A stretch of DNA of 64,000 nt, from NCBI GenBank assembly GCA_964653055.1, contig CAZZCA010000008.1, positions 5,371-69,370 of the forward strand, written 5' to 3'. Position 1 is the first letter of the stretch. Every line of letters starts with the position of its first letter. This stretch comes from an uncultured Desulfobulbia bacterium. Its GTDB lineage: Bacteria > Desulfobacterota > Desulfobulbia > Desulfobulbales > SURF-16. A program made the position numbers and the translations under genes. Below the pieces are notes generated by a model that was given only the letters and a program-made list of their open reading frames with translations, was not told the DNA's origin and searched no databases. This document shows positions 40,780 through 48,858 of this stretch, one piece after another.

Positions 40780-42108
40780 TTACCAGCGCCGATACAAATC
40801 TGCCAATTTTTTAATTGGCATTCCGCAGAGCAACCCAAGGATCATAAGCTGATTAATCATGGTGGTACGGAATATGCCAAGCCGTTGCCAGCGCCGAGCC
40901 GATGTTATGGCTTCCCGGGGAAGGGTTATTATTCTGCCCCGACACCGGAGGCGGTGCACAAGCTCAAGATCCTCCATAATAGGCATGGTGGCAAAACCGC
41001 CCACCTCCTCAAACATTCTTTTTTTCATAAACAGTCCCTGATCACCATAGGGATATTTCAATTTTGTCGAACGAAAATTTGCCACCCACTCAACTACCCG
41101 CATTGGCAGCCTGGAATCATTTGTTTTAAAACGAAAGGCCCCTGCTACAGTGGCAGGATTATCCAGGGCATGGATGATCATATTGGCGTATCCGGCTGGC
41201 AGGATTGTGTCGGCGTGCAAAAACAGCAGGATCTGCCCTTGGGCAACACTTGCCCCCCTGTTTAATTGAGCAGCACGGCCCTGGCTAACCTTCAAGATCG
41301 TGGCCCCGCTCTTCAATGCTATTTCCCGAGAATTGTCATGACTGCCTCCATCCACCACAATGACTTCAATATTTTCGGCCCGGTTTATTTGTTTCAGGGT
41401 TGCACCAAGTACCGGCGCCTCATTCAAAGTGGGGATAATAACTGATATAACGGCATTGGAATCAAATATATCTTTATAGTGGGAATTGGAACGGATCATA
41501 TCCAAATCATTTGGCCTGTCCACATCACTTAAAATCGGCAATTCTGCCAAGCGGAGATCAAGCCCTTTGACCTTCTTCCTGGTTTGTTCAAAAACCTGCT
41601 CTGTTCCCCAGTCAATTTCTTTAAATAAGTCCTGGTGTGCGGACTTCATTCCAATAAGGTAATATCCACCATCAGCCGCAGGACCAAGGACAACATCGTT
41701 TTTATTCAAACCCTCCCGGGCACGGGAAATAATATCTGCGGTCAGCCCTGGAATGTCAGTGCCAATGATGATGGTCGCGCCTGTAGCCTCATTTTCCCGG
41801 GTGACCGTTTCGATTGCCCGCTGCATTCGCTGACCAATAGTGCCTGATGGTTGTGATCTGTAATGCAGGTCATGGCCCAGCCAGGCGCGGAAGTCTTTAA
41901 GGGGGGCCCCTGTGCAATATACCGTAACGAGTATGTTTTTTTTGCCGAACTCATTGCGAAAAGACCTGGCAACTCCCACAATGTATTCAGTCATGCGTCT
42001 ATGCAGCTGAGCTGCTTTTTCAGCCCCGAGCGCCGGGATCAATCGGGTTTTTGCCTTTCCTGCCTCCGGAAAACGACAAAAAATCAGTAATCGGCAATTT
42101 AGAGTCAT
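40780..42108 (-). CDS. Fused glycosyltransferase pair: TIGR04282-type (DUF2064/CofC-like) plus TIGR04283-type (GT2)
   Basis: N-half PEAGKAKTRL, IGTDIP, VLGPAADGGYYLIG, SDVDRPNDL; C-half ISVIIPTLNEA, VVDGGSHD, GRAAQLNRGA, LFLHADT, YGDQGLF, PIMED, TSARRW. Confidence 0.88.
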   Translation of the reverse strand: MTLNCRLLIFCRFPEAGKAKTRLIPALGAEKAAQLHRRMTEYIVGVARSFRNEFGKKNILVTVYCTGAPLKDFRAWLGHDLHYRSQPSGTIGQRMQRAIETVTRENEATGATIIIGTDIPGLTADIISRAREGLNKNDVVLGPAADGGYYLIGMKSAHQDLFKEIDWGTEQVFEQTRKKVKGLDLRLAELPILSDVDRPNDLDMIRSNSHYKDIFDSNAVISVIIPTLNEAPVLGATLKQINRAENIEVIVVDGGSHDNSREIALKSGATILKVSQGRAAQLNRGASVAQGQILLFLHADTILPAGYANMIIHALDNPATVAGAFRFKTNDSRLPMRVVEWVANFRSTKLKYPYGDQGLFMKKRMFEEVGGFATMPIMEDLELVHRLRCRGRIITLPREAITSARRWQRLGIFRTTMINQLMILGLLCGMPIKKLADLYRRW

Positions 42109-42212: not shown

Positions 42213-44054
42213 TTATGGTTTTTGCTTAGACAGTAAAGGTATCGAGGACACTCCGGCTATTAGCAGGACCCCGACGAAAAACTCAGGGGTAAGATTTCCC
42301 TGCAGGACTTCCAGTAGAGAACTTGAGAAAACAATATAGGCTATGCAGGCTGGCAGCATACAGATAAAAGAGCTTATTGCGTAATGGCTGAACTTAACCT
42401 TGGTAAGTCCAAAAGCGTAGTTAAGGAGGTTAAAAGGAAAAAGAGGGATCAGTCGGGTAAAGGCGACTGCTTTCCAGCCATGTCTCTCAACCATGGTGTC
42501 TAGTTGTTGCAATTTCGAGCTGCGCAGTTTTTCTTCTATCCAGGACCTACCGATGTAGCGGGAGATGAGGAAGGCAATACAGGCTCCGACGGTAGCGCCG
42601 CTGATGCTGTATATTACGCCCCATAATGGCCCGAACAGGATGCCGCCGATAATGGTGAACGGCAGTCCTGGAAGTAAAAGTGCTGGAGCCGCAGCATAGG
42701 TCAGCATGAAGATAAGAGGAGCCAGTGCTCCATAACCCTGGATTAGCGATTGTAGTTTCTCTTGATCAAGGTAGTGGCTCATCCCGCTCAGGTGGGCTGT
42801 TGCCAGTGCAATGATAAATGTAATCAGGGTCAGCAGCCGTGGCATATTTATTCGCGGTTTCTTGTCTTCCCCGGTAAAGGTCCTAATCCGGCTGGTGGTA
42901 GGATGTATTTTCTTTTTAAAATGGCGTTTCAACTGCAGGCGGTTGAGGTATGTCCAGGGGGCTTTAGAGCTTTTTGTCTTGCCGGCAAGAGTTGCCTCAG
43001 GGGCAAAAAGTAGATCAAGGATGTGACTGGTTGGTGTGATTGAACCCAAAAAGTTAACACAGCCGGCGCAATAGGTAAGAATCAGTCTGCCATTGGCTTC
43101 TTCTTTTCGCCGTCTTCCCCAGACCTTTGCCAAATCATCATTAACACACCCTACAGACCCTCCTTCGCCACAGCAAAGAGTTTTGAGACTATGGTGTTCC
43201 ATCTCTTTAATCGTTAATGATTTTTCCATGGCTATTTTGCGGATAGCCGCATGAATATGCGTATCATTTCTGGTGCTGCATGGGTCGTGTATAGTGATCT
43301 CTGCTGGAATATCTGCTTTTGCCGGCAGTGATGTTTCCGCCAGATATTCGTATACTGTTTTAACATTAAGGTTATTTCCATATTGCTTGAAGACCCGGTA
43401 GCAGTTAGGACAGGCCACCAGGATATTTTCTACCCCATGCTGTAACAGGTATTCTTTCATTTCACCAAACATGGCATGGAAATGTTTTTCTCTGCCAAGG
43501 TCATGGGATGGTTTGGTGCAACAGTCCAGAACTATTCCGAGATCTGGCAGAGTGGTCTGCAGGTGATCGAAGAGAGATTTGACCCTGCCCGGCCTGGTCC
43601 CGGGAAGTGCACACCCCGGGAAAAGGATGGTGTCGCAGTTTTTCGGGAGGGCGTAGTAGGAATAATGCCTGGAGGCCCCCCGTTTCTCATAACCCAGGAT
43701 AGTGTTATAGGCGGAAAAATCCTCTATTCCCACGGCAACAGCCTCCTGCCGCATTGCCAGAAAGAGTGCTGCCGGGTTCAGTCCGATTTTAGGCGGACAG
43801 CTGTTTGCGCATAGGCCGCAGAGGCTGCATTCAAAGGCAAGCCCTGGGGTGTCCAGGGAAAAACTGGCGGCAATGGCCTTTGGAGAGCCATTTTTTTGGA
43901 GAAAGGAGCATTCTTTTTGACAGAGTCCGCATTCGATACATTTGTCGACATGACACGCAAGTTCTTTCTGAATAGTGAGGCTTTGTGGTGAATACGATGT
44001 TTCAGGCATGATATGTCCGGGCAAAGAGAAAGCTGTATTTATGGCAGGGTCCAA
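42213..44054 (-). CDS. Fe-S/CCG-domain oxidoreductase (HdrD/GlpC-like) fused to a C-terminal DedA/TVP38 (VTT) membrane domain
   Basis: CIECGLCQKEC and CSLCGLCANSCP ferredoxin motifs; PGC, CCTKP, ACPNC, HDPCS, CCGEGG, YCAGC; C-terminal LPGLPFTIIGGILFG...RLIPLFPFNLLNYAFG. Start may be ATG 44009. Confidence 0.88.
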   Translation of the reverse strand: MDPAINTAFSLPGHIMPETSYSPQSLTIQKELACHVDKCIECGLCQKECSFLQKNGSPKAIAASFSLDTPGLAFECSLCGLCANSCPPKIGLNPAALFLAMRQEAVAVGIEDFSAYNTILGYEKRGASRHYSYYALPKNCDTILFPGCALPGTRPGRVKSLFDHLQTTLPDLGIVLDCCTKPSHDLGREKHFHAMFGEMKEYLLQHGVENILVACPNCYRVFKQYGNNLNVKTVYEYLAETSLPAKADIPAEITIHDPCSTRNDTHIHAAIRKIAMEKSLTIKEMEHHSLKTLCCGEGGSVGCVNDDLAKVWGRRRKEEANGRLILTYCAGCVNFLGSITPTSHILDLLFAPEATLAGKTKSSKAPWTYLNRLQLKRHFKKKIHPTTSRIRTFTGEDKKPRINMPRLLTLITFIIALATAHLSGMSHYLDQEKLQSLIQGYGALAPLIFMLTYAAAPALLLPGLPFTIIGGILFGPLWGVIYSISGATVGACIAFLISRYIGRSWIEEKLRSSKLQQLDTMVERHGWKAVAFTRLIPLFPFNLLNYAFGLTKVKFSHYAISSFICMLPACIAYIVFSSSLLEVLQGNLTPEFFVGVLLIAGVSSIPLLSKQKP

Positions 44055-44202
44055 GTTGCCATAAATCTTGGTGTTCTCCTATTTTGTTGTTTGACTGTAA
44101 GTAAGGAGCCATGCCACATTTATTGATGTTAAAGCGGCAATTCCAATATGTAAGCATACAGGAATTGCCTTTGATAGAGCGACAATCTTATGAATACTTA
44201 AG

Positions 44203-44622
44203 TTATTTTTTGACCAACAGGTCACTATATGGCCATTTCTCCACACCGCCTCTTAAGATGGTTAGTTTCTCCTCGGGAACCCCTTGGCTCTTCATGTAAG
44301 AATAGGTTCTTTTGGCCCCGCCTCCGCCTCTGGGACAAACGACAACCACATTGTTGGCGGTGTCTTTAAAGGATTTTACGGCCACGTCGAGCTGTGCCCG
44401 CTGGGCATCTGTTTTGACGGGGTAGGCATTCGTCTCCAGGGAACCGGGAAAATGATGGGCTGTAAATTCATCTTTCACCTGGATGTCGACAATGATCATG
44501 GGCTTATTGTTTTCCAGCCATTGTTTAAACTGATTGGTCTCCAGGTAATTAAATTGCTCAAAAATAAAAGCTGCATTGAGCAGGCAGATAAGGGAAATAG
44601 CAGTAATAGTTAATTTTTTCAT
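44203..44622 (-). CDS. Secreted single-domain rhodanese
   Basis: Signal-like N-terminus MKKLTITAISLICLL; IVDIQ...HFPGS; active loop VCPRGGG; LRGGVEKW; AAGAGG RBS. Confidence 0.85.
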   Translation of the reverse strand: MKKLTITAISLICLLNAAFIFEQFNYLETNQFKQWLENNKPMIIVDIQVKDEFTAHHFPGSLETNAYPVKTDAQRAQLDVAVKSFKDTANNVVVVCPRGGGGAKRTYSYMKSQGVPEEKLTILRGGVEKWPYSDLLVKK

Positions 44623-44726
44623 GTGGTTTTCCTCTTGGTGTAGTAGTGAAATTGTCATACCATTTGAATAATTAAAAACAAGTTATCTCGTATTTTCCGA
44701 TATTGCAAATTGGAAATATCTATAGT

Positions 44727-44779: not shown

Positions 44780-45691
44780 ATGGAAATCAATAAACTTGAA
44801 GCCTTCTGTAAGGTGGTTGAGCTAAAGAGTTTTACCCGGGCGGCTGAAGCGGTGTTTCTTACCCAGCCAACTGTCAGCGAACATATTCGCAGTCTTGAGC
44901 AGGAGCTTGGAGAAAAACTCCTGGACAGGATGGGACGAGTTGTGGAACCGACTCCGGTGGGGCGTTTATTTTATGGATATGCCCGTAAAATTCTTAAAAC
45001 CCGGAATGAGGCCAAGGAGGCGGTGGCACAGTTCAGTGGCAATCTGGTCGGTAGTATTCTGGCTGGTTGCAGTACCATACCTGGAACGTATTTACTCCCG
45101 GAATTGATTGGCGGATTTCGTGCCCGTTACCCTTCCATTAAAACGACTCTGCATATAAGTAGTTCGCGAATTATTGCTGGAAAGGTGTTGGAGGGTGAGT
45201 TGGATTTTGGGGTGGTTGGGGCCAAATGGCGGGAAAGTGGCCTGAACTGGGCCCAGATGTTTCATGATGAGTTGATTCTGGCCGTACATCCTGATCATCC
45301 GTGGGCGATGGACGGCAAGCCGGTGCCATTGGCCAGAGTTATGCAGGAACCTTTTATTCTGCGTGAGACTGAATCCGGCACCAGGAAAGTATTTTCCCTG
45401 ATTCTTGCCGAAAACGGGCTGAAGGAAAACGATCTTCGCGAAGTTGCTGAAATAGGCTCCACTGCAGCAATTAAAGAAGCGGTCAAGGCAGGAATCGGAA
45501 TCTCTATTCTATCCCGGTGTGCTCTTAAGGATGATATTAACTGTGGCCGAATTGCGGCTGTAAATATTCACAGTCAGACACTGGAACGGTCATTTTACCT
45601 GGTGCAGCGTAAAAATAGAGAGCTTTCCCCTGTTGCTTCGGTGTTTTTGGAATATCTCCGGGATAATGCAGAGTCGGTTGGTGTAATTTAG
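44780..45691 (+). CDS. LysR-family transcriptional regulator (resembles the CysL / selenium-metabolism-associated subfamily)
   Basis: HTH FCKVVELKSFTRAAEAVFLTQPTVSEHIRSLE; GCSTIPG; RETESGTRK; IKEAVKAGIGIS. Confidence 0.93.
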   Translation: MEINKLEAFCKVVELKSFTRAAEAVFLTQPTVSEHIRSLEQELGEKLLDRMGRVVEPTPVGRLFYGYARKILKTRNEAKEAVAQFSGNLVGSILAGCSTIPGTYLLPELIGGFRARYPSIKTTLHISSSRIIAGKVLEGELDFGVVGAKWRESGLNWAQMFHDELILAVHPDHPWAMDGKPVPLARVMQEPFILRETESGTRKVFSLILAENGLKENDLREVAEIGSTAAIKEAVKAGIGISILSRCALKDDINCGRIAAVNIHSQTLERSFYLVQRKNRELSPVASVFLEYLRDNAESVGVI

Positions 45692-48600
45692 TCTTGATTC
45701 TTGAGTTTTATGTTATGCGTTGAAAAAGTTTTTTCCCGATTAGACCACAGGGGGCATTTCTGGTGAATACAATCCGAATTTTTTGGGTATTGATTACAGA
45801 CAGGCTTAGAGTCAGCGATTAAGTCAAGGCCCATCTCCCGGCTGATCAATGCCGCCTCCTGTAGGGTGGCAACCGATTCCCGCAGACAGCAACGGGCCCC
45901 TGTCACCTCAGATAGCTTGAGCAAGATCCGACCAACTGCCCCCATGGCCAACTGTCGCCCCTCGGGTGTCATCGGAGTACTCTGGAGAATTATGGCAAAG
46001 CCAATTCCTGCCCCTACAGCCGCCCCGCAATTGCCCATAAAGCCACAGGAGCCCCCTGGCACTCTGGCTCCGCGAGCCAGGGCAAGATCCACCATTTCGT
46101 TCTTGTCGATTCCTTGACTATTAGCAAAGGCGGCAACCATAACCGCTGGAACCAGTAAATGGTGTTCTGGACCATGCATGGGAACAGCCGGATGACTGCG
46201 AATTTTAGTTAACAACGATAAAATATCACTTTCAGTACTTCTTGAGCAGATATGCCTTATCACCTCAGCACCTTCCTGCTGGTGACATGAGTCACAGACA
46301 AAATGACCACCCTTACACAAGACAGAGGCCCCTGTCGAAGATCCGCAATAATGACAGACAGTATCTTTTTCCTGCCATCCATAAACAAGTTCTTGACCAC
46401 AGACCATACAACCGGATGTTAAGTGAGGAAGAGATTCAGGAGCAGGTGAGATTTTTTCCTGGTTTTTAAGCATGGCCAATGGAAATGGCTGGGGATCGCT
46501 CTTGTTACCGGTACAAGCACAGCCACCGGCCATGTCCTGATTACTGACTGCGCCCTGTTTATCAAGTACCCATAATGATGTGTTATCCTCATGGGGGTTC
46601 ATACCCCTGGTCAGCGTGGTGCGCTTACCTTTGAGCAGGAATTGACCATCTTCTCGATAAAGGCCGCCATGGGGGCCAGGATAAATAACCTCGAGTTCAT
46701 CTTGCTCGAAGGCCTGCTTGAAGGCTACAAAGGTAAGAGAATAGAAATCGACTCCCCCAAGTTGGCGATAAGGGAATCGTTTAAGCAAGGAGATATCTCT
46801 GAAACCGGACGCCTGAAGCATGGCCACAAGTTTTTCCTGCTCCATAGCGCCGCCAAGACATTCTCCCCGCAGTTTATGGTTAACCATTATTGATATCGGC
46901 AAGGGACCATCGGTTACTATATCTGAAACCACCAATCGCCCTCCTGGTTTTAAAATTCGGAAGGCCTCTGCCATGGTCTGCCGTTTATCAGCGCTGAGGT
47001 TAATCACACAATTTGAGATTACTGCATCTGCCATCTGATCAGCCAAGGGGATGGCCTCGAGAAAACCTTTGCAGAAATTAACATTATCATAACCGAGACG
47101 TGCAACTACATCTCTTTTGGAATCAGCTGCAAGGTCCAGCATGTCATCGGTCATGTCAATTCCAATTACCCGGCCTTTTCCACCCACCGCGTCAGCGGCC
47201 ATAAAACACTCCACTCCGGAGCCACTGCCCAGATCAACCACAACCTCACCAGTCTCTGGTGCGGCATCATCCACCGGGCTGCCACATCCGTAAGAGCGCT
47301 TACGGCTAACCTCAGGGATATAGCCGGCATCTTGCTGGCTGCCAGCAAAAGGGTTGATTATTTCTTTATTGTCCTTTCTTGCGGCCTGGGCATAAAAATC
47401 ACCCACCAACGACCGGTCTGCGCCACCAGTTAAGGATATCAGACAATTGCAATGAGTAAGGCTTACCCCGGTCTGATCCTCATCGGCAGAAGGGCAATCA
47501 TGACGAACATCGCCCATGCGCAGAATTATCTCTGGAGTTTCCGGCTGATTGCAGTTAGCTGCCTGTCGACTGATCAGGTAGAGGCATATTTTATTATAAA
47601 GTTCAAGGTAGGGATCATGGCCAACCAATTCGCCGGCCTGGATAAAACTATGGTCATGATCACCGCCACCGGTAAGAAAACGGAAAGGATCATCAGCCGT
47701 CCGGGAGTGATCGAGAAGGCTTGCCCGCCGAACCTTATAACTGATTTTGCTATTACGCCATACTTCAGCCAACCCCTGGCTAAGATGACCCATGTTCATT
47801 TCATCTAAAGCCACCAGGGCCGGGGAAGGATAAATACAGGCATCAGGGCCAATGGCCAGGGATTGCCAGCCACTATTGCTGAGATCGTGTCTGGTTCCTC
47901 GAGGTGCCATTACCTGGGCCCGCAGGTAGTCAAAATTGTCAATTATTACTCCCAGTTTGCCGGCAACCTGATGGGCCTTTAGCAGGTTATTGAAAATTTG
48001 CTCAGGAGCAACAAATCTGCTGTCATCGCCTTTACCGCGTTTGAAATACCAGAGGTAGTGAATATTCTTGACTCCCATTTCGGCGGCTACCAGGGTCAAG
48101 GTCGGCAAATCATTTACATTATCACGTTGAACAACGGTGGAAAGGGTTACAGCAAAACCTTCAGCCTGTAACAAATTGACTGAATTAATTAATTTCTGGT
48201 AGGTACCTTTGCCTCGAATAAGGTCATGCCCTTTTTCAAGACCGTCCATACTTAGCTGGAGGTGAAAACGCTTACGGGGCAGGCGGCGCAGATCATCAAG
48301 GTGACGGGGGACAGCCATGCCATTTGTTAATACCACAACATGGAGTTTGGGGTTTGCGGCAAGCAGGTCAGCTAATCGGGGTAACAGGCCAGGGTAGACC
48401 AATGGCTCACCACCGGTAAAGATAAGAAGCTCAAGACCAAGTTCAAGGGCTTGCTTGATTGCCAAATCAAGATATTCCTGGGGAAGATGATCAGCCTGGG
48501 CCGGTGAACTGCTGAAAAGGCAGTGACAGCAGGACAGGTCACAGGCATTGGTCAGGTGAATCCACAACTCCCTTAACCTGGTAAGGGTCAGATGCTTAAA

Positions 48601-48858
48601 TCGTCCCTGATAATGAGCAATGGCCCCGGGATCAATGAGCAGACGAAGACGTTCAAGATGAAAGTCCGGCGATGACTCATCAACAGAATAACCCTGTATA
48701 ACTCTGTCTGCTGATGCTGATGGCACAAACCAGTCCGGAACATCTGGGTTAAGGTAAATGGGGCAGCCGGCAAATTCATAGCGTTGCCAATTAGTATTTT
48801 TAATGGTCCAATTTGTCATAGTTAAGAATTCCCTACTATATAATAACTCTGGATTCAA
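45688..48858 (-). CDS. Radical SAM / degenerate SPASM + ArsM-like As(III) methyltransferase + DUF5714 fusion (start may be ATG 48819)
   Basis: CDLSCCHC (C106-C110-C113), FTGGEP; MTase SYGCGSP, VDLGSGSG, IGIDMT, ISNCVINL, GECLGGA; Cys-rich C-terminus CMVCG...CHYCG...HGPEHH...GSCGFMGNCGAA...RCC. Confidence 0.85.
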   Translation of the reverse strand: MNPELLYSREFLTMTNWTIKNTNWQRYEFAGCPIYLNPDVPDWFVPSASADRVIQGYSVDESSPDFHLERLRLLIDPGAIAHYQGRFKHLTLTRLRELWIHLTNACDLSCCHCLFSSSPAQADHLPQEYLDLAIKQALELGLELLIFTGGEPLVYPGLLPRLADLLAANPKLHVVVLTNGMAVPRHLDDLRRLPRKRFHLQLSMDGLEKGHDLIRGKGTYQKLINSVNLLQAEGFAVTLSTVVQRDNVNDLPTLTLVAAEMGVKNIHYLWYFKRGKGDDSRFVAPEQIFNNLLKAHQVAGKLGVIIDNFDYLRAQVMAPRGTRHDLSNSGWQSLAIGPDACIYPSPALVALDEMNMGHLSQGLAEVWRNSKISYKVRRASLLDHSRTADDPFRFLTGGGDHDHSFIQAGELVGHDPYLELYNKICLYLISRQAANCNQPETPEIILRMGDVRHDCPSADEDQTGVSLTHCNCLISLTGGADRSLVGDFYAQAARKDNKEIINPFAGSQQDAGYIPEVSRKRSYGCGSPVDDAAPETGEVVVDLGSGSGVECFMAADAVGGKGRVIGIDMTDDMLDLAADSKRDVVARLGYDNVNFCKGFLEAIPLADQMADAVISNCVINLSADKRQTMAEAFRILKPGGRLVVSDIVTDGPLPISIMVNHKLRGECLGGAMEQEKLVAMLQASGFRDISLLKRFPYRQLGGVDFYSLTFVAFKQAFEQDELEVIYPGPHGGLYREDGQFLLKGKRTTLTRGMNPHEDNTSLWVLDKQGAVSNQDMAGGCACTGNKSDPQPFPLAMLKNQEKISPAPESLPHLTSGCMVCGQELVYGWQEKDTVCHYCGSSTGASVLCKGGHFVCDSCHQQEGAEVIRHICSRSTESDILSLLTKIRSHPAVPMHGPEHHLLVPAVMVAAFANSQGIDKNEMVDLALARGARVPGGSCGFMGNCGAAVGAGIGFAIILQSTPMTPEGRQLAMGAVGRILLKLSEVTGARCCLRESVATLQEAALISREMGLDLIADSKPVCNQYPKNSDCIHQKCPLWSNREKTFSTHNIKLKNQD

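Follow-up and report, generated by a model that had tools for sequence, protein, structure and literature searches.

DedA proteins are nearly universal, and their COG0398 (YdjX/TVP38) branch includes relatives of human TMEM41B and VMP1. Flavoprotein domains PF07992 and PF02852, which make up the class-I pyridine-nucleotide disulfide oxidoreductases, are the commonest fusion partner of COG0398 DedA proteins; the survey that reports this ties the branch to aerobic metabolism and does not mention a fusion to Fer4 and CCG domains (PMC10127716). The other systems that bear on the present work are HdrD of HdrDE, HdrB/HdrC of HdrABC and DsrK of DsrMK, all of which combine two ferredoxin [4Fe-4S] motifs with a full CXnCCXnCXXC set. 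Here we analyzed a stretch of 64,000 nucleotides (the window) from an uncultured Desulfobulbia bacterium of the lineage SURF-16 (Desulfobacterota, Desulfobulbales; assembly GCA_964653055.1, contig CAZZCA010000008.1, positions 5,371 to 69,370 of the forward strand). One gene of this window encodes the same iron-sulfur (Fe-S) motifs as the Hdr and Dsr proteins, but it has no cytochrome b partner and carries a DedA (VTT) domain in its place. The fusion is best read as the Fe-S counterpart, in anaerobes, of the pair of DedA and class-I flavoprotein disulfide reductase in aerobes. Our literature search found no paper on a Fer4/CCG-DedA fusion.

The Fer4-CCG-CCG-VTT gene occupies positions 42213 to 44054 on the reverse strand, an uninterrupted frame of 613 codons counted from TTG 44054. 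Pfam matches Fer4_17/Fer4_8, a 4Fe-4S dicluster domain, at residues 36 to 90 (43785..43949) above the cut-offs; the two CxxCxxCxxxC motifs of this region (C39-C49 and C76-C86) hold eight invariant Cys, and two cubane [4Fe-4S] clusters are expected there. The CCG family matches in two stretches (41.6 bits against a cut-off of 20.6), the better at residues 253 to 336. The first motif, C148...C178-C179...C215-P-N-C218 (43380..43628), was delimited from the sequence and the homologue alignment and aligns with the CPHC of EtfD; the second, C259...C294-C295-G...C329-A-G-C332 (43047..43298), aligns with EtfD residues 637 to 712 and is modeled with a predicted local distance difference test (pLDDT) score of 80 to 95. 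A Lys/Arg-rich linker (42810..42932) precedes the first membrane helix, and the membrane domain itself (42225..42851) matches VTT_dom (PF09335) at residues 461 to 578 with 105.9 bits against 33.9. An earlier note on this DNA, made from the letters alone, had recognized two ferredoxin motifs, CCG motifs and a DedA domain in one open reading frame lying between a rhodanese gene and glycosyltransferase genes, and the unbroken frame, the Pfam matches and the flanking genes all agree with it. The frame that it drew also stands, but its 5' end is probably 45 bases too long, because the identical database protein begins at M16 (ATG 44009; 598 aa) and conservation among the fusion homologues sets in only after M16. 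Judged by this comparison, ATG 44009 is probably the true start and TTG 44054 merely the first possible one.

The fusion is a real, widely conserved family and not an artefact. A search of 5.8 billion proteins returned 2,226 homologues at E ≤ 1e-10, and the best 120 of these (55 to 72% identical), from Desulfobulbaceae, Desulfocapsa, Thermodesulfovibrionales/Nitrospirota, Syntrophobacteraceae and others, all carry Fer4, CCG and VTT. They are annotated merely as 'VTT domain-containing protein' or, in the naming that comes from JGI, 'YdjX (TVP38/TMEM64 family)/Fe-S oxidoreductase'. When 26 homologues of 55 to 70% identity were aligned, the mean column identity was 72% and all 18 Fe-S Cys were invariant (C39/42/45/49, C76/79/82/86, C148/178/179/215/218 and C259/294/295/329/332). 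Among 400 sampled genomes of one phylum, 23 (about 6%) have the full-length fused gene; four genomes (G230, G373, G089 and G181) have split forms in which both halves are adjoining genes, and a genome of the same family as the host (G220) has the Fe-S half by itself at 57% identity. Some variants are longer, 830 to 855 aa (P0003 to P0005; L018:9962-12457; L019; L003:1735-2394), because they include one more polytopic membrane domain, about 220 aa long. This extra domain matches nothing in Pfam or NCBIfam, occurs elsewhere as a separate gene downstream of the fusion and before ydjY (40 to 54% identity), and was not found in the host genome of the present fusion.

The nearest family model of the Fe-S half (residues 34 to 388) is NF045663, which NCBI names 'diclust_near_Sec' (flavoprotein/dicluster-binding protein). 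The match reaches 209.9 bits against a cut-off of 530 and covers profile positions 301 to 670 only: the two resemble each other in the Fe-S part, and NF045663 proteins have in addition an N-terminal GltD-like pyridine-nucleotide oxidoreductase domain that the fusion lacks. No full member of NF045663 was found in the host genome. The named CCG equivalogs DsrK, TmcB, TfrB, GlcF, LdhH and LutB were not matched either (19 to 43 bits against cut-offs of 333 to 800). Among proteins of solved structure, Mycobacterium smegmatis EtfD (PDB 9ojn) is the best relative by both sequence (E = 2e-9) and fold (E = 1.3e-7), followed by LutA and HdrB; the HdrB chains match in fold at E of about 6e-4 with a TM-score of 0.55 normalized to the target. 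EtfD, like the fusion, joins Fer4 and CCG to a membrane domain in one polypeptide, but its membrane part is an N-terminal heme-b five-helix bundle. Moreover, its first CC is changed to CT, giving a linear [3Fe-4S] cluster, His583 of its CPHC caps the second cluster, and its CCG clusters act as a non-catalytic electron wire (PMC13083937). The fusion family, in contrast, keeps the Hdr-type ligands: both CC doublets are invariant, and CPNC stands where EtfD has CPHC, with Asn replacing the capping His. By these motifs the Fe-S half has the HdrB-type ligand set with a predicted open iron site. Such a set would permit disulfide-type catalysis but does not prove it, because the same ligand pattern also occurs in proteins other than disulfide reductases. 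Replacement of a CCG Cys by selenocysteine (Sec), which would mark a catalytic residue, was looked for in three genomes (G199, G309 and G254), and no in-frame stop aligned with the Fe-S module.

Several CCG proteins act peripherally at membranes, and the module might, as in EtfD, GlpC and DsrK, shuttle electrons from a cytoplasmic donor to the quinone pool, with the DedA domain as a mere anchor. The rank of EtfD as best match fits this idea; however, the substitutions that make the EtfD clusters non-catalytic are lacking, heme b would find no conserved His pair in the VTT domain, and the pairing of the same VTT subfamily with flavoprotein disulfide reductases and rhodanese, described below, would be left unexplained. 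We therefore hold such an electron wire to be very improbable. For want of an invariant His pair, a heme-binding membrane domain or cytochrome-b-like partner was rejected as well, and so was a DsbD-like electron relay through Cys in the VTT helices, since many full-length fusions have Phe in place of C565 and Thr in place of C570.

The VTT domain is 38% identical to Escherichia coli YdjX and 33% to YdjZ. It is not of the COG0586 type that flips undecaprenyl phosphate (UndP): the UptA model gives 18.2 bits against a cut-off of 250, and the DedA equivalog PRK10847 gives 20 bits against 236. Its motif TRLIPLFPFNLLNYAFG contains a single Arg in place of the two of UndP flippases, and acidic residues are missing from the first re-entrant loop (read against PMC10127716). 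Taken together, the identities, the low UptA and DedA scores, the single Arg and the loop composition assign the membrane domain, at the level of sequence, to the COG0398 (YdjX/TVP38) subfamily. A hydrophobicity scan places the first membrane helix at about residues 402 to 426; given the Lys/Arg-rich linker before it (positive-inside rule) and the lack of a signal peptide, the Fe-S module is predicted to be cytoplasmic. In the AlphaFold model the CCG part has a pLDDT of 80 to 95, and the overall predicted template-modeling score is 0.59.

These membrane data bear on the possibility that the DedA domain serves neighboring GT2 and GT-C enzymes by flipping a polyprenyl-phosphate sugar or by recycling undecaprenyl phosphate, with the Fe-S module as a gating redox sensor. 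The fusion is the single DedA match in the host genome (1.87 Mb, 99.66% complete), where DUF368 has no match, so neither recognized type of UndP flippase is present there. Besides, genes that would suit a lipid carrier are not rare within 10 kb of the fusion, the distance used for all neighbor counts below: among 53 full-length fusion loci, a polyprenyl-phosphate-type GT2 is found in 12, a GT-C-like membrane protein in 14, a cellulose-synthase-like GT2 in 13, and a signal-peptide-bearing, β-rich protein of about 283 aa, a putative outer-membrane protein, in 15. Against this stand the missing second Arg and the missing acidic residues of the UndP-flippase signature, the very low UptA score, the presence of the fusion in so few genomes of the phylum, and the 18 invariant Fe-S Cys, which are many for a mere sensor. 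It seems unlikely, on balance, that the fusion serves a lipid carrier.

The partners of the VTT domain were compared in a tree of VTT domains from loci of species-representative genomes, rooted with E. coli YdjX/YdjZ. The context sample comprised 80 loci, namely the 53 full-length fusions and 27 VTT-only matches or split genes. The domains that are fused to Fer4-CCG group in a single clade (support 0.89), which also includes two members that have secondarily become unfused. Its sister clade consists of stand-alone VTTs that either belong to clusters with ArsS, TIGR04282, TIGR04283 and TIGR04169 or neighbor an 850-aa NF045663-like protein; at locus L071, for example, an NF045663-like protein (502 bits) directly adjoins a stand-alone VTT gene. 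Farther out, two nodes outside the fused clade, are VTTs adjoining MerA/Lpd-like flavoproteins with the redox disulfide CL[NH]xGC, and the outermost position is taken by gammaproteobacterial VTT-rhodanese fusions under the control of ArsR-rhodanese proteins. Thus, a single VTT subfamily (support 0.94) is fused to Fer4-CCG, adjacent to NF045663-like flavoprotein-Fer4-CCG proteins, adjacent to MerA-like flavoproteins, or fused to rhodanese. The pairs of COG0398 DedA with a class-I oxidoreductase (PF07992 plus PF02852) resemble our fusion in several respects: the VTT subfamily is the same, the partner, on the cytoplasmic side, is a module of the disulfide-reductase type, and the neighbors ArsS, TIGR04282/TIGR04283 and rhodanese are shared, as at locus L074, where VTT-rhodanese, MerA-like flavoprotein, ArsS, TIGR04283, TIGR04282 and ArsM stand all together. 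They differ in that the partner of the fusion is an oxygen-sensitive Fer4-CCG module, without an FAD or NAD(P)H domain, placed N-terminal to the VTT domain. The earlier note had stated that TVP38 domains occur with flavoproteins in ArsS clusters and had proposed an Fe-S replacement of that redox module. The pairing of DedA with flavoproteins does exist, in the published survey (PMC10127716) and, with ArsS in the same locus, at L074, and the replacement is supported by the order of the tree, the shared neighbors and the genome-level co-occurrence with ArsS.

That two unrelated kinds of disulfide reductase and a sulfurtransferase attach to one DedA subfamily is our main argument that the chemistry they share concerns an S-S-type bond. 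From the domains and their arrangement, we consider it moderately probable that a cytoplasmic HdrB-like site of the fusion cleaves a disulfide, persulfide, selenotrisulfide or thiol-metalloid bond and is coupled, through the YdjX-type DedA domain, to an exported rhodanese; for any particular substrate the probability is much lower. In this mechanism, a donor, likely reduced ferredoxin or a separate flavoprotein, would reduce the two cubane [4Fe-4S] clusters on the cytoplasmic face, and these would pass electrons to the two HdrB-type CCG (non-cubane) clusters, the type of site that cleaves S-S bonds in heterodisulfide reductase. The DedA domain would carry the substrate or product across the inner membrane, or present it there. 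The partners of the fusion would be the TIGR04282/TIGR04283 transferases and the exported rhodanese, which would carry sulfane sulfur or selenium. We infer both the bond cleavage and the coupling of cleavage to translocation.

Several points weigh against this mechanism. Two complete CCG motifs also occur in LutA, GlcF and GlpC, and not all CCG proteins are disulfide reductases. The VTT half of the AlphaFold model has a pLDDT of only 35 to 65, so the domain interface cannot be read from it. COG0398 DedA proteins are thought to be lipid scramblases and not solute carriers (PMC10127716). The host genome has no ArsS (the best score is 49 bits against the TIGR04167 cut-off of 300), no YdjY and no TIGR04169, and the co-occurrence statistics given below overstate the link to ArsS because related genomes are not independent. 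Finally, the contexts of the fusion vary among glycosyltransferase clusters, YdjY alone, selenium genes and SsuA-type ABC transporters, and one single substrate may not exist.

In the window, the gene upstream of the fusion (44203..44658, reverse strand) encodes a single-domain rhodanese, recognized by Pfam, with an N-terminal hydrophobic segment at residues 15 to 36 that marks it as exported or membrane-anchored. Its loop, CPRGGGG, is of the six-residue sulfurtransferase type and not of the CX5R arsenate-reductase type. Directly downstream of the fusion, a reverse-strand gene at 40780..42108 encodes a transferase of 442 aa in which TIGR04282 (DUF2064; 201.8 bits against 134) and TIGR04283 (GT2; 249.6 against 182) are fused. 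No convincing terminator separates the rhodanese, fusion and transferase genes; in this order they probably constitute one operon. Divergent from it lies the only gene of the genome for the regulator LysR_Se (NF040786; 44780..45691, forward strand; 302.9 bits against 250), and beyond that, at 45688..48858 on the reverse strand, is a gene for a 1056-aa protein with radical SAM, ArsM-like methyltransferase and DUF5714 parts. The radical SAM part reaches 45.6 bits to TIGR04167 against 300, and the gene may take the place of the absent ArsS; it was rejected as a general partner, since it recurs in none of the 53 fusion loci. An 11-bp inverted repeat, ATTTATGGCA...TGCCATAAAT (44037..44066, reverse strand), lies before the fusion gene and overlaps an upstream open reading frame of 7 codons (ATG 44061; ribosome-binding site AGGAG). 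The repeat might act as an operator of the fusion gene or control its translation.

Across the 53 loci, rhodanese genes are the most frequent neighbors (25 loci), followed by glycosyltransferases of any kind (23), ArsS or TIGR04282/TIGR04283 (16, with ArsS itself in 9, all above cut-off) and YdjY-domain proteins, mostly encoded directly downstream (15). Another radical-SAM-like gene is present in 9 loci beyond those with ArsS or TIGR04282/TIGR04283. Some selenium gene is near the fusion in 14 loci, with LysR_Se in 7, SelD in 5, YedF in 5 and an SclA-like desulfurase in 3. At least one of rhodanese, glycosyltransferase, selenium gene and YdjY is present in 46 of the 53; four loci have no recognized neighbor, three of them being cut short on at least one side. 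The counts for glycosyltransferases, ArsS or TIGR04282/TIGR04283 and other radical-SAM-like genes show that the fusion does not occur mainly in contexts without glycosyltransferase or radical SAM genes, the distribution that the earlier note had named as evidence against its idea. By a crude test, an N-terminal hydrophobic segment is present in all 36 tandem rhodaneses, in 9 of 11 single rhodaneses and in 11 of 16 YdjY proteins, and in none of the GT2, SelD and LysR controls. On this prediction the partner rhodaneses and YdjY proteins are extracytoplasmic.

Which element the system handles was addressed by co-occurrence in the 400 genomes. ArsS (TIGR04167 above cut-off) is present in 19 of the 23 carriers of the fusion and in 122 of the 377 other genomes (Fisher p = 2e-6); counted by family, it is present in 10 of 14 carrier families against a background by genus of about 41% (p = 0.02), and in about ten carriers it lies on the same contig within 15 kb of the fusion. 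SelD, in contrast, occurs throughout most of the phylum (92%) and shows no enrichment: 20 of 23 carriers have it, as do 346 of the 377 other genomes (p = 0.43). In two carriers of fairly high completeness, G139 (99%) and G169 (94%), SelD gave no match, and none of the 30 best-scoring LysR_Se loci has a fusion within 1.5 kb. Strict dependence on selenium was rejected on these three grounds. From the ArsS enrichment, the lack of SelD enrichment and the reverse test with LysR_Se, it follows that the fusion goes along with the ArsS-type gene set more closely than with selenium genes. Many ArsS matches have one in-frame TGA, and ArsS is thus often a selenoprotein.

The earlier note had suggested reduction of pentavalent (methyl)arsenic or of a disulfide at the membrane, and flipping of a lipid-linked or glycosylated product. 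An arsenic-specific role of this kind would have the module reduce methylated As(V), or restore the reduced dithiols of ArsM or ArsS, for an arsenosugar-like pathway, with the DedA domain flipping or exporting a lipid-linked or glycosylated organoarsenical. The enrichment and proximity of ArsS, the TIGR04282/TIGR04283 gene next to the fusion in the window, and the ArsM-like domain encoded nearby speak for it. The fusion is also followed by TIGR04282 and then TIGR04283 at locus L012, and by TIGR04282 at L008; L074 unites ArsM, ArsS, TIGR04282/TIGR04283, flavoprotein and VTT; and Synechococcus, which carries ArsS, is the only control genome that scored. On the other hand, the 'arsenosugar' names of TIGR04282 and TIGR04283 presumably rest on gene context, and we found no paper in which either was assayed. 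An ArsM-like gene is near only 1 of the 53 fusion loci, the host genome is without ArsS, the rhodanese loop is of the wrong type for an arsenate reductase, and HdrB-type sites are known for S-S cleavage and not for As(V) reduction. All in all, we regard a role confined to arsenic as unlikely.

A selenium-specific role would have the exported rhodanese capture selenium, the DedA domain import it, and the Fe-S module reduce selenotrisulfide or perselenide to selenide for SelD, as an uptake route in Sec users that lack YedE. The host fits this description, as its SelD gene has an in-frame TGA, a sign of Sec use, and YedE was not found in its genome. The divergent LysR_Se gene, the selenium genes near 14 of the fusion loci and the family name of NF045663 point the same way, and a link between DedA and resistance to selenite has been reported (Ledgham 2005, as cited in PMC10127716). 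The SelD distribution and the 30 LysR_Se loci argue against it, however, and LysR_Se might stand nearby only as the switch between Sec and Cys isoforms of neighboring enzymes, the part that HrsM plays (PMC5322559). The regulator beside the operon could mean selenium chemistry or selenium-dependent switching of Cys-form enzymes. A role for selenium alone is thus unlikely as well, somewhat more so than one for arsenic alone. Considering the exported rhodaneses together with the LysR_Se, SelD, YedF and SclA neighbors, the chemistry of arsenic is no more likely than that of sulfur or selenium.

Some further observations were made in these neighborhoods. At locus L056:8321-10783 (Desulfuromonadales), LysR_Se, a rhodanese 42% identical to that of the window and a stand-alone VTT nested in the fused clade are found together, a set that suggests the same operon with its Fe-S module lost. 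Single-domain exported rhodaneses beside the fusion (e.g., L042:1841-2362) carry the loop YCGF[VT]KC (CxxxxC) and match best to the N-terminal region of TsoB, a selenoprotein with the motif UxxxxU; from this match they look like Cys versions of a redox site that contains Sec. A double-cubane-cluster reductase (NF040772), often with a BcrAD/BadFG-type ATPase, adjoins LysR_Se in 4 of the 30 LysR_Se loci (L109, L112, L114 and L125) and is present at 6 of the 53 fusion loci (L007, L023, L043, L044, L051 and L054); it may be a further member of the selenium-linked gene set. TIGR04282 and ArsS (TIGR04167) are fused in proteins of 573 to 577 aa at L022:8163-9884 and L026:6779-8512 (scored in L022). 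In family f33, whose genomes are small (G168, G228, G137 and G257), ArsS lies in a frame of 666 to 704 aa directly upstream of a divergent Fe-S/DedA fusion (31 to 36% identical).

Parts of the fusion clusters recur in the ydjX-ydjY-ydjZ-ynjA-ynjBCD-ynjE operon of E. coli K-12 (L130, 1833401-1840774), which comprises a YdjX-type DedA, YdjY, an AhpD-like protein, an ABC transporter and a multi-domain rhodanese. A YdjY model built from the neighbors of the fusion scores 228 bits on the E. coli YdjY lipoprotein. The E. coli operon differs from the fusion clusters in having no Fe-S/CCG module, glycosyltransferase or ArsS genes, and the window in turn differs from the E. coli operon in having no YdjY. 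Taking these systems together, we put forward a broader and quite tentative proposal, which we think improbable as a whole though less so than a role confined to either element. YdjX/TVP38-type DedA proteins would be the membrane-embedded core of a conserved envelope relay for thiophilic elements. An exported rhodanese or YdjY would act outside, and inside there would be a reductase for disulfides or persulfides, of the Fe-S/CCG kind in anaerobes and a flavoprotein in aerobes. ArsS-type radical SAM enzymes and their transferases would thereby receive S, Se or As in reduced form; the E. coli operon would be another form of the relay, and these DedA proteins would not be, or not only be, lipid scramblases.

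On our reading, strict anaerobes have made with an oxygen-sensitive Hdr-like module the same pairing of DedA and redox partner for which aerobes use a flavoprotein. The common denominator of the COG0398 pairings would then point to cleavage of S-S-type bonds at the membrane and not to aerobiosis. The fusion would also add a redox and membrane component to the widespread ArsS/TIGR04282/TIGR04283 gene set. With a soluble domain, a separable rhodanese partner and LysR_Se as a likely regulator, the hypothesis is directly testable, and the E. coli ydjX-ynjE operon offers an easy genetic model. The neighbors of the fusion, namely the exported rhodaneses and the "arsenosugar-type" gene set, therefore provide a testable lead to the function of its DedA subfamily.

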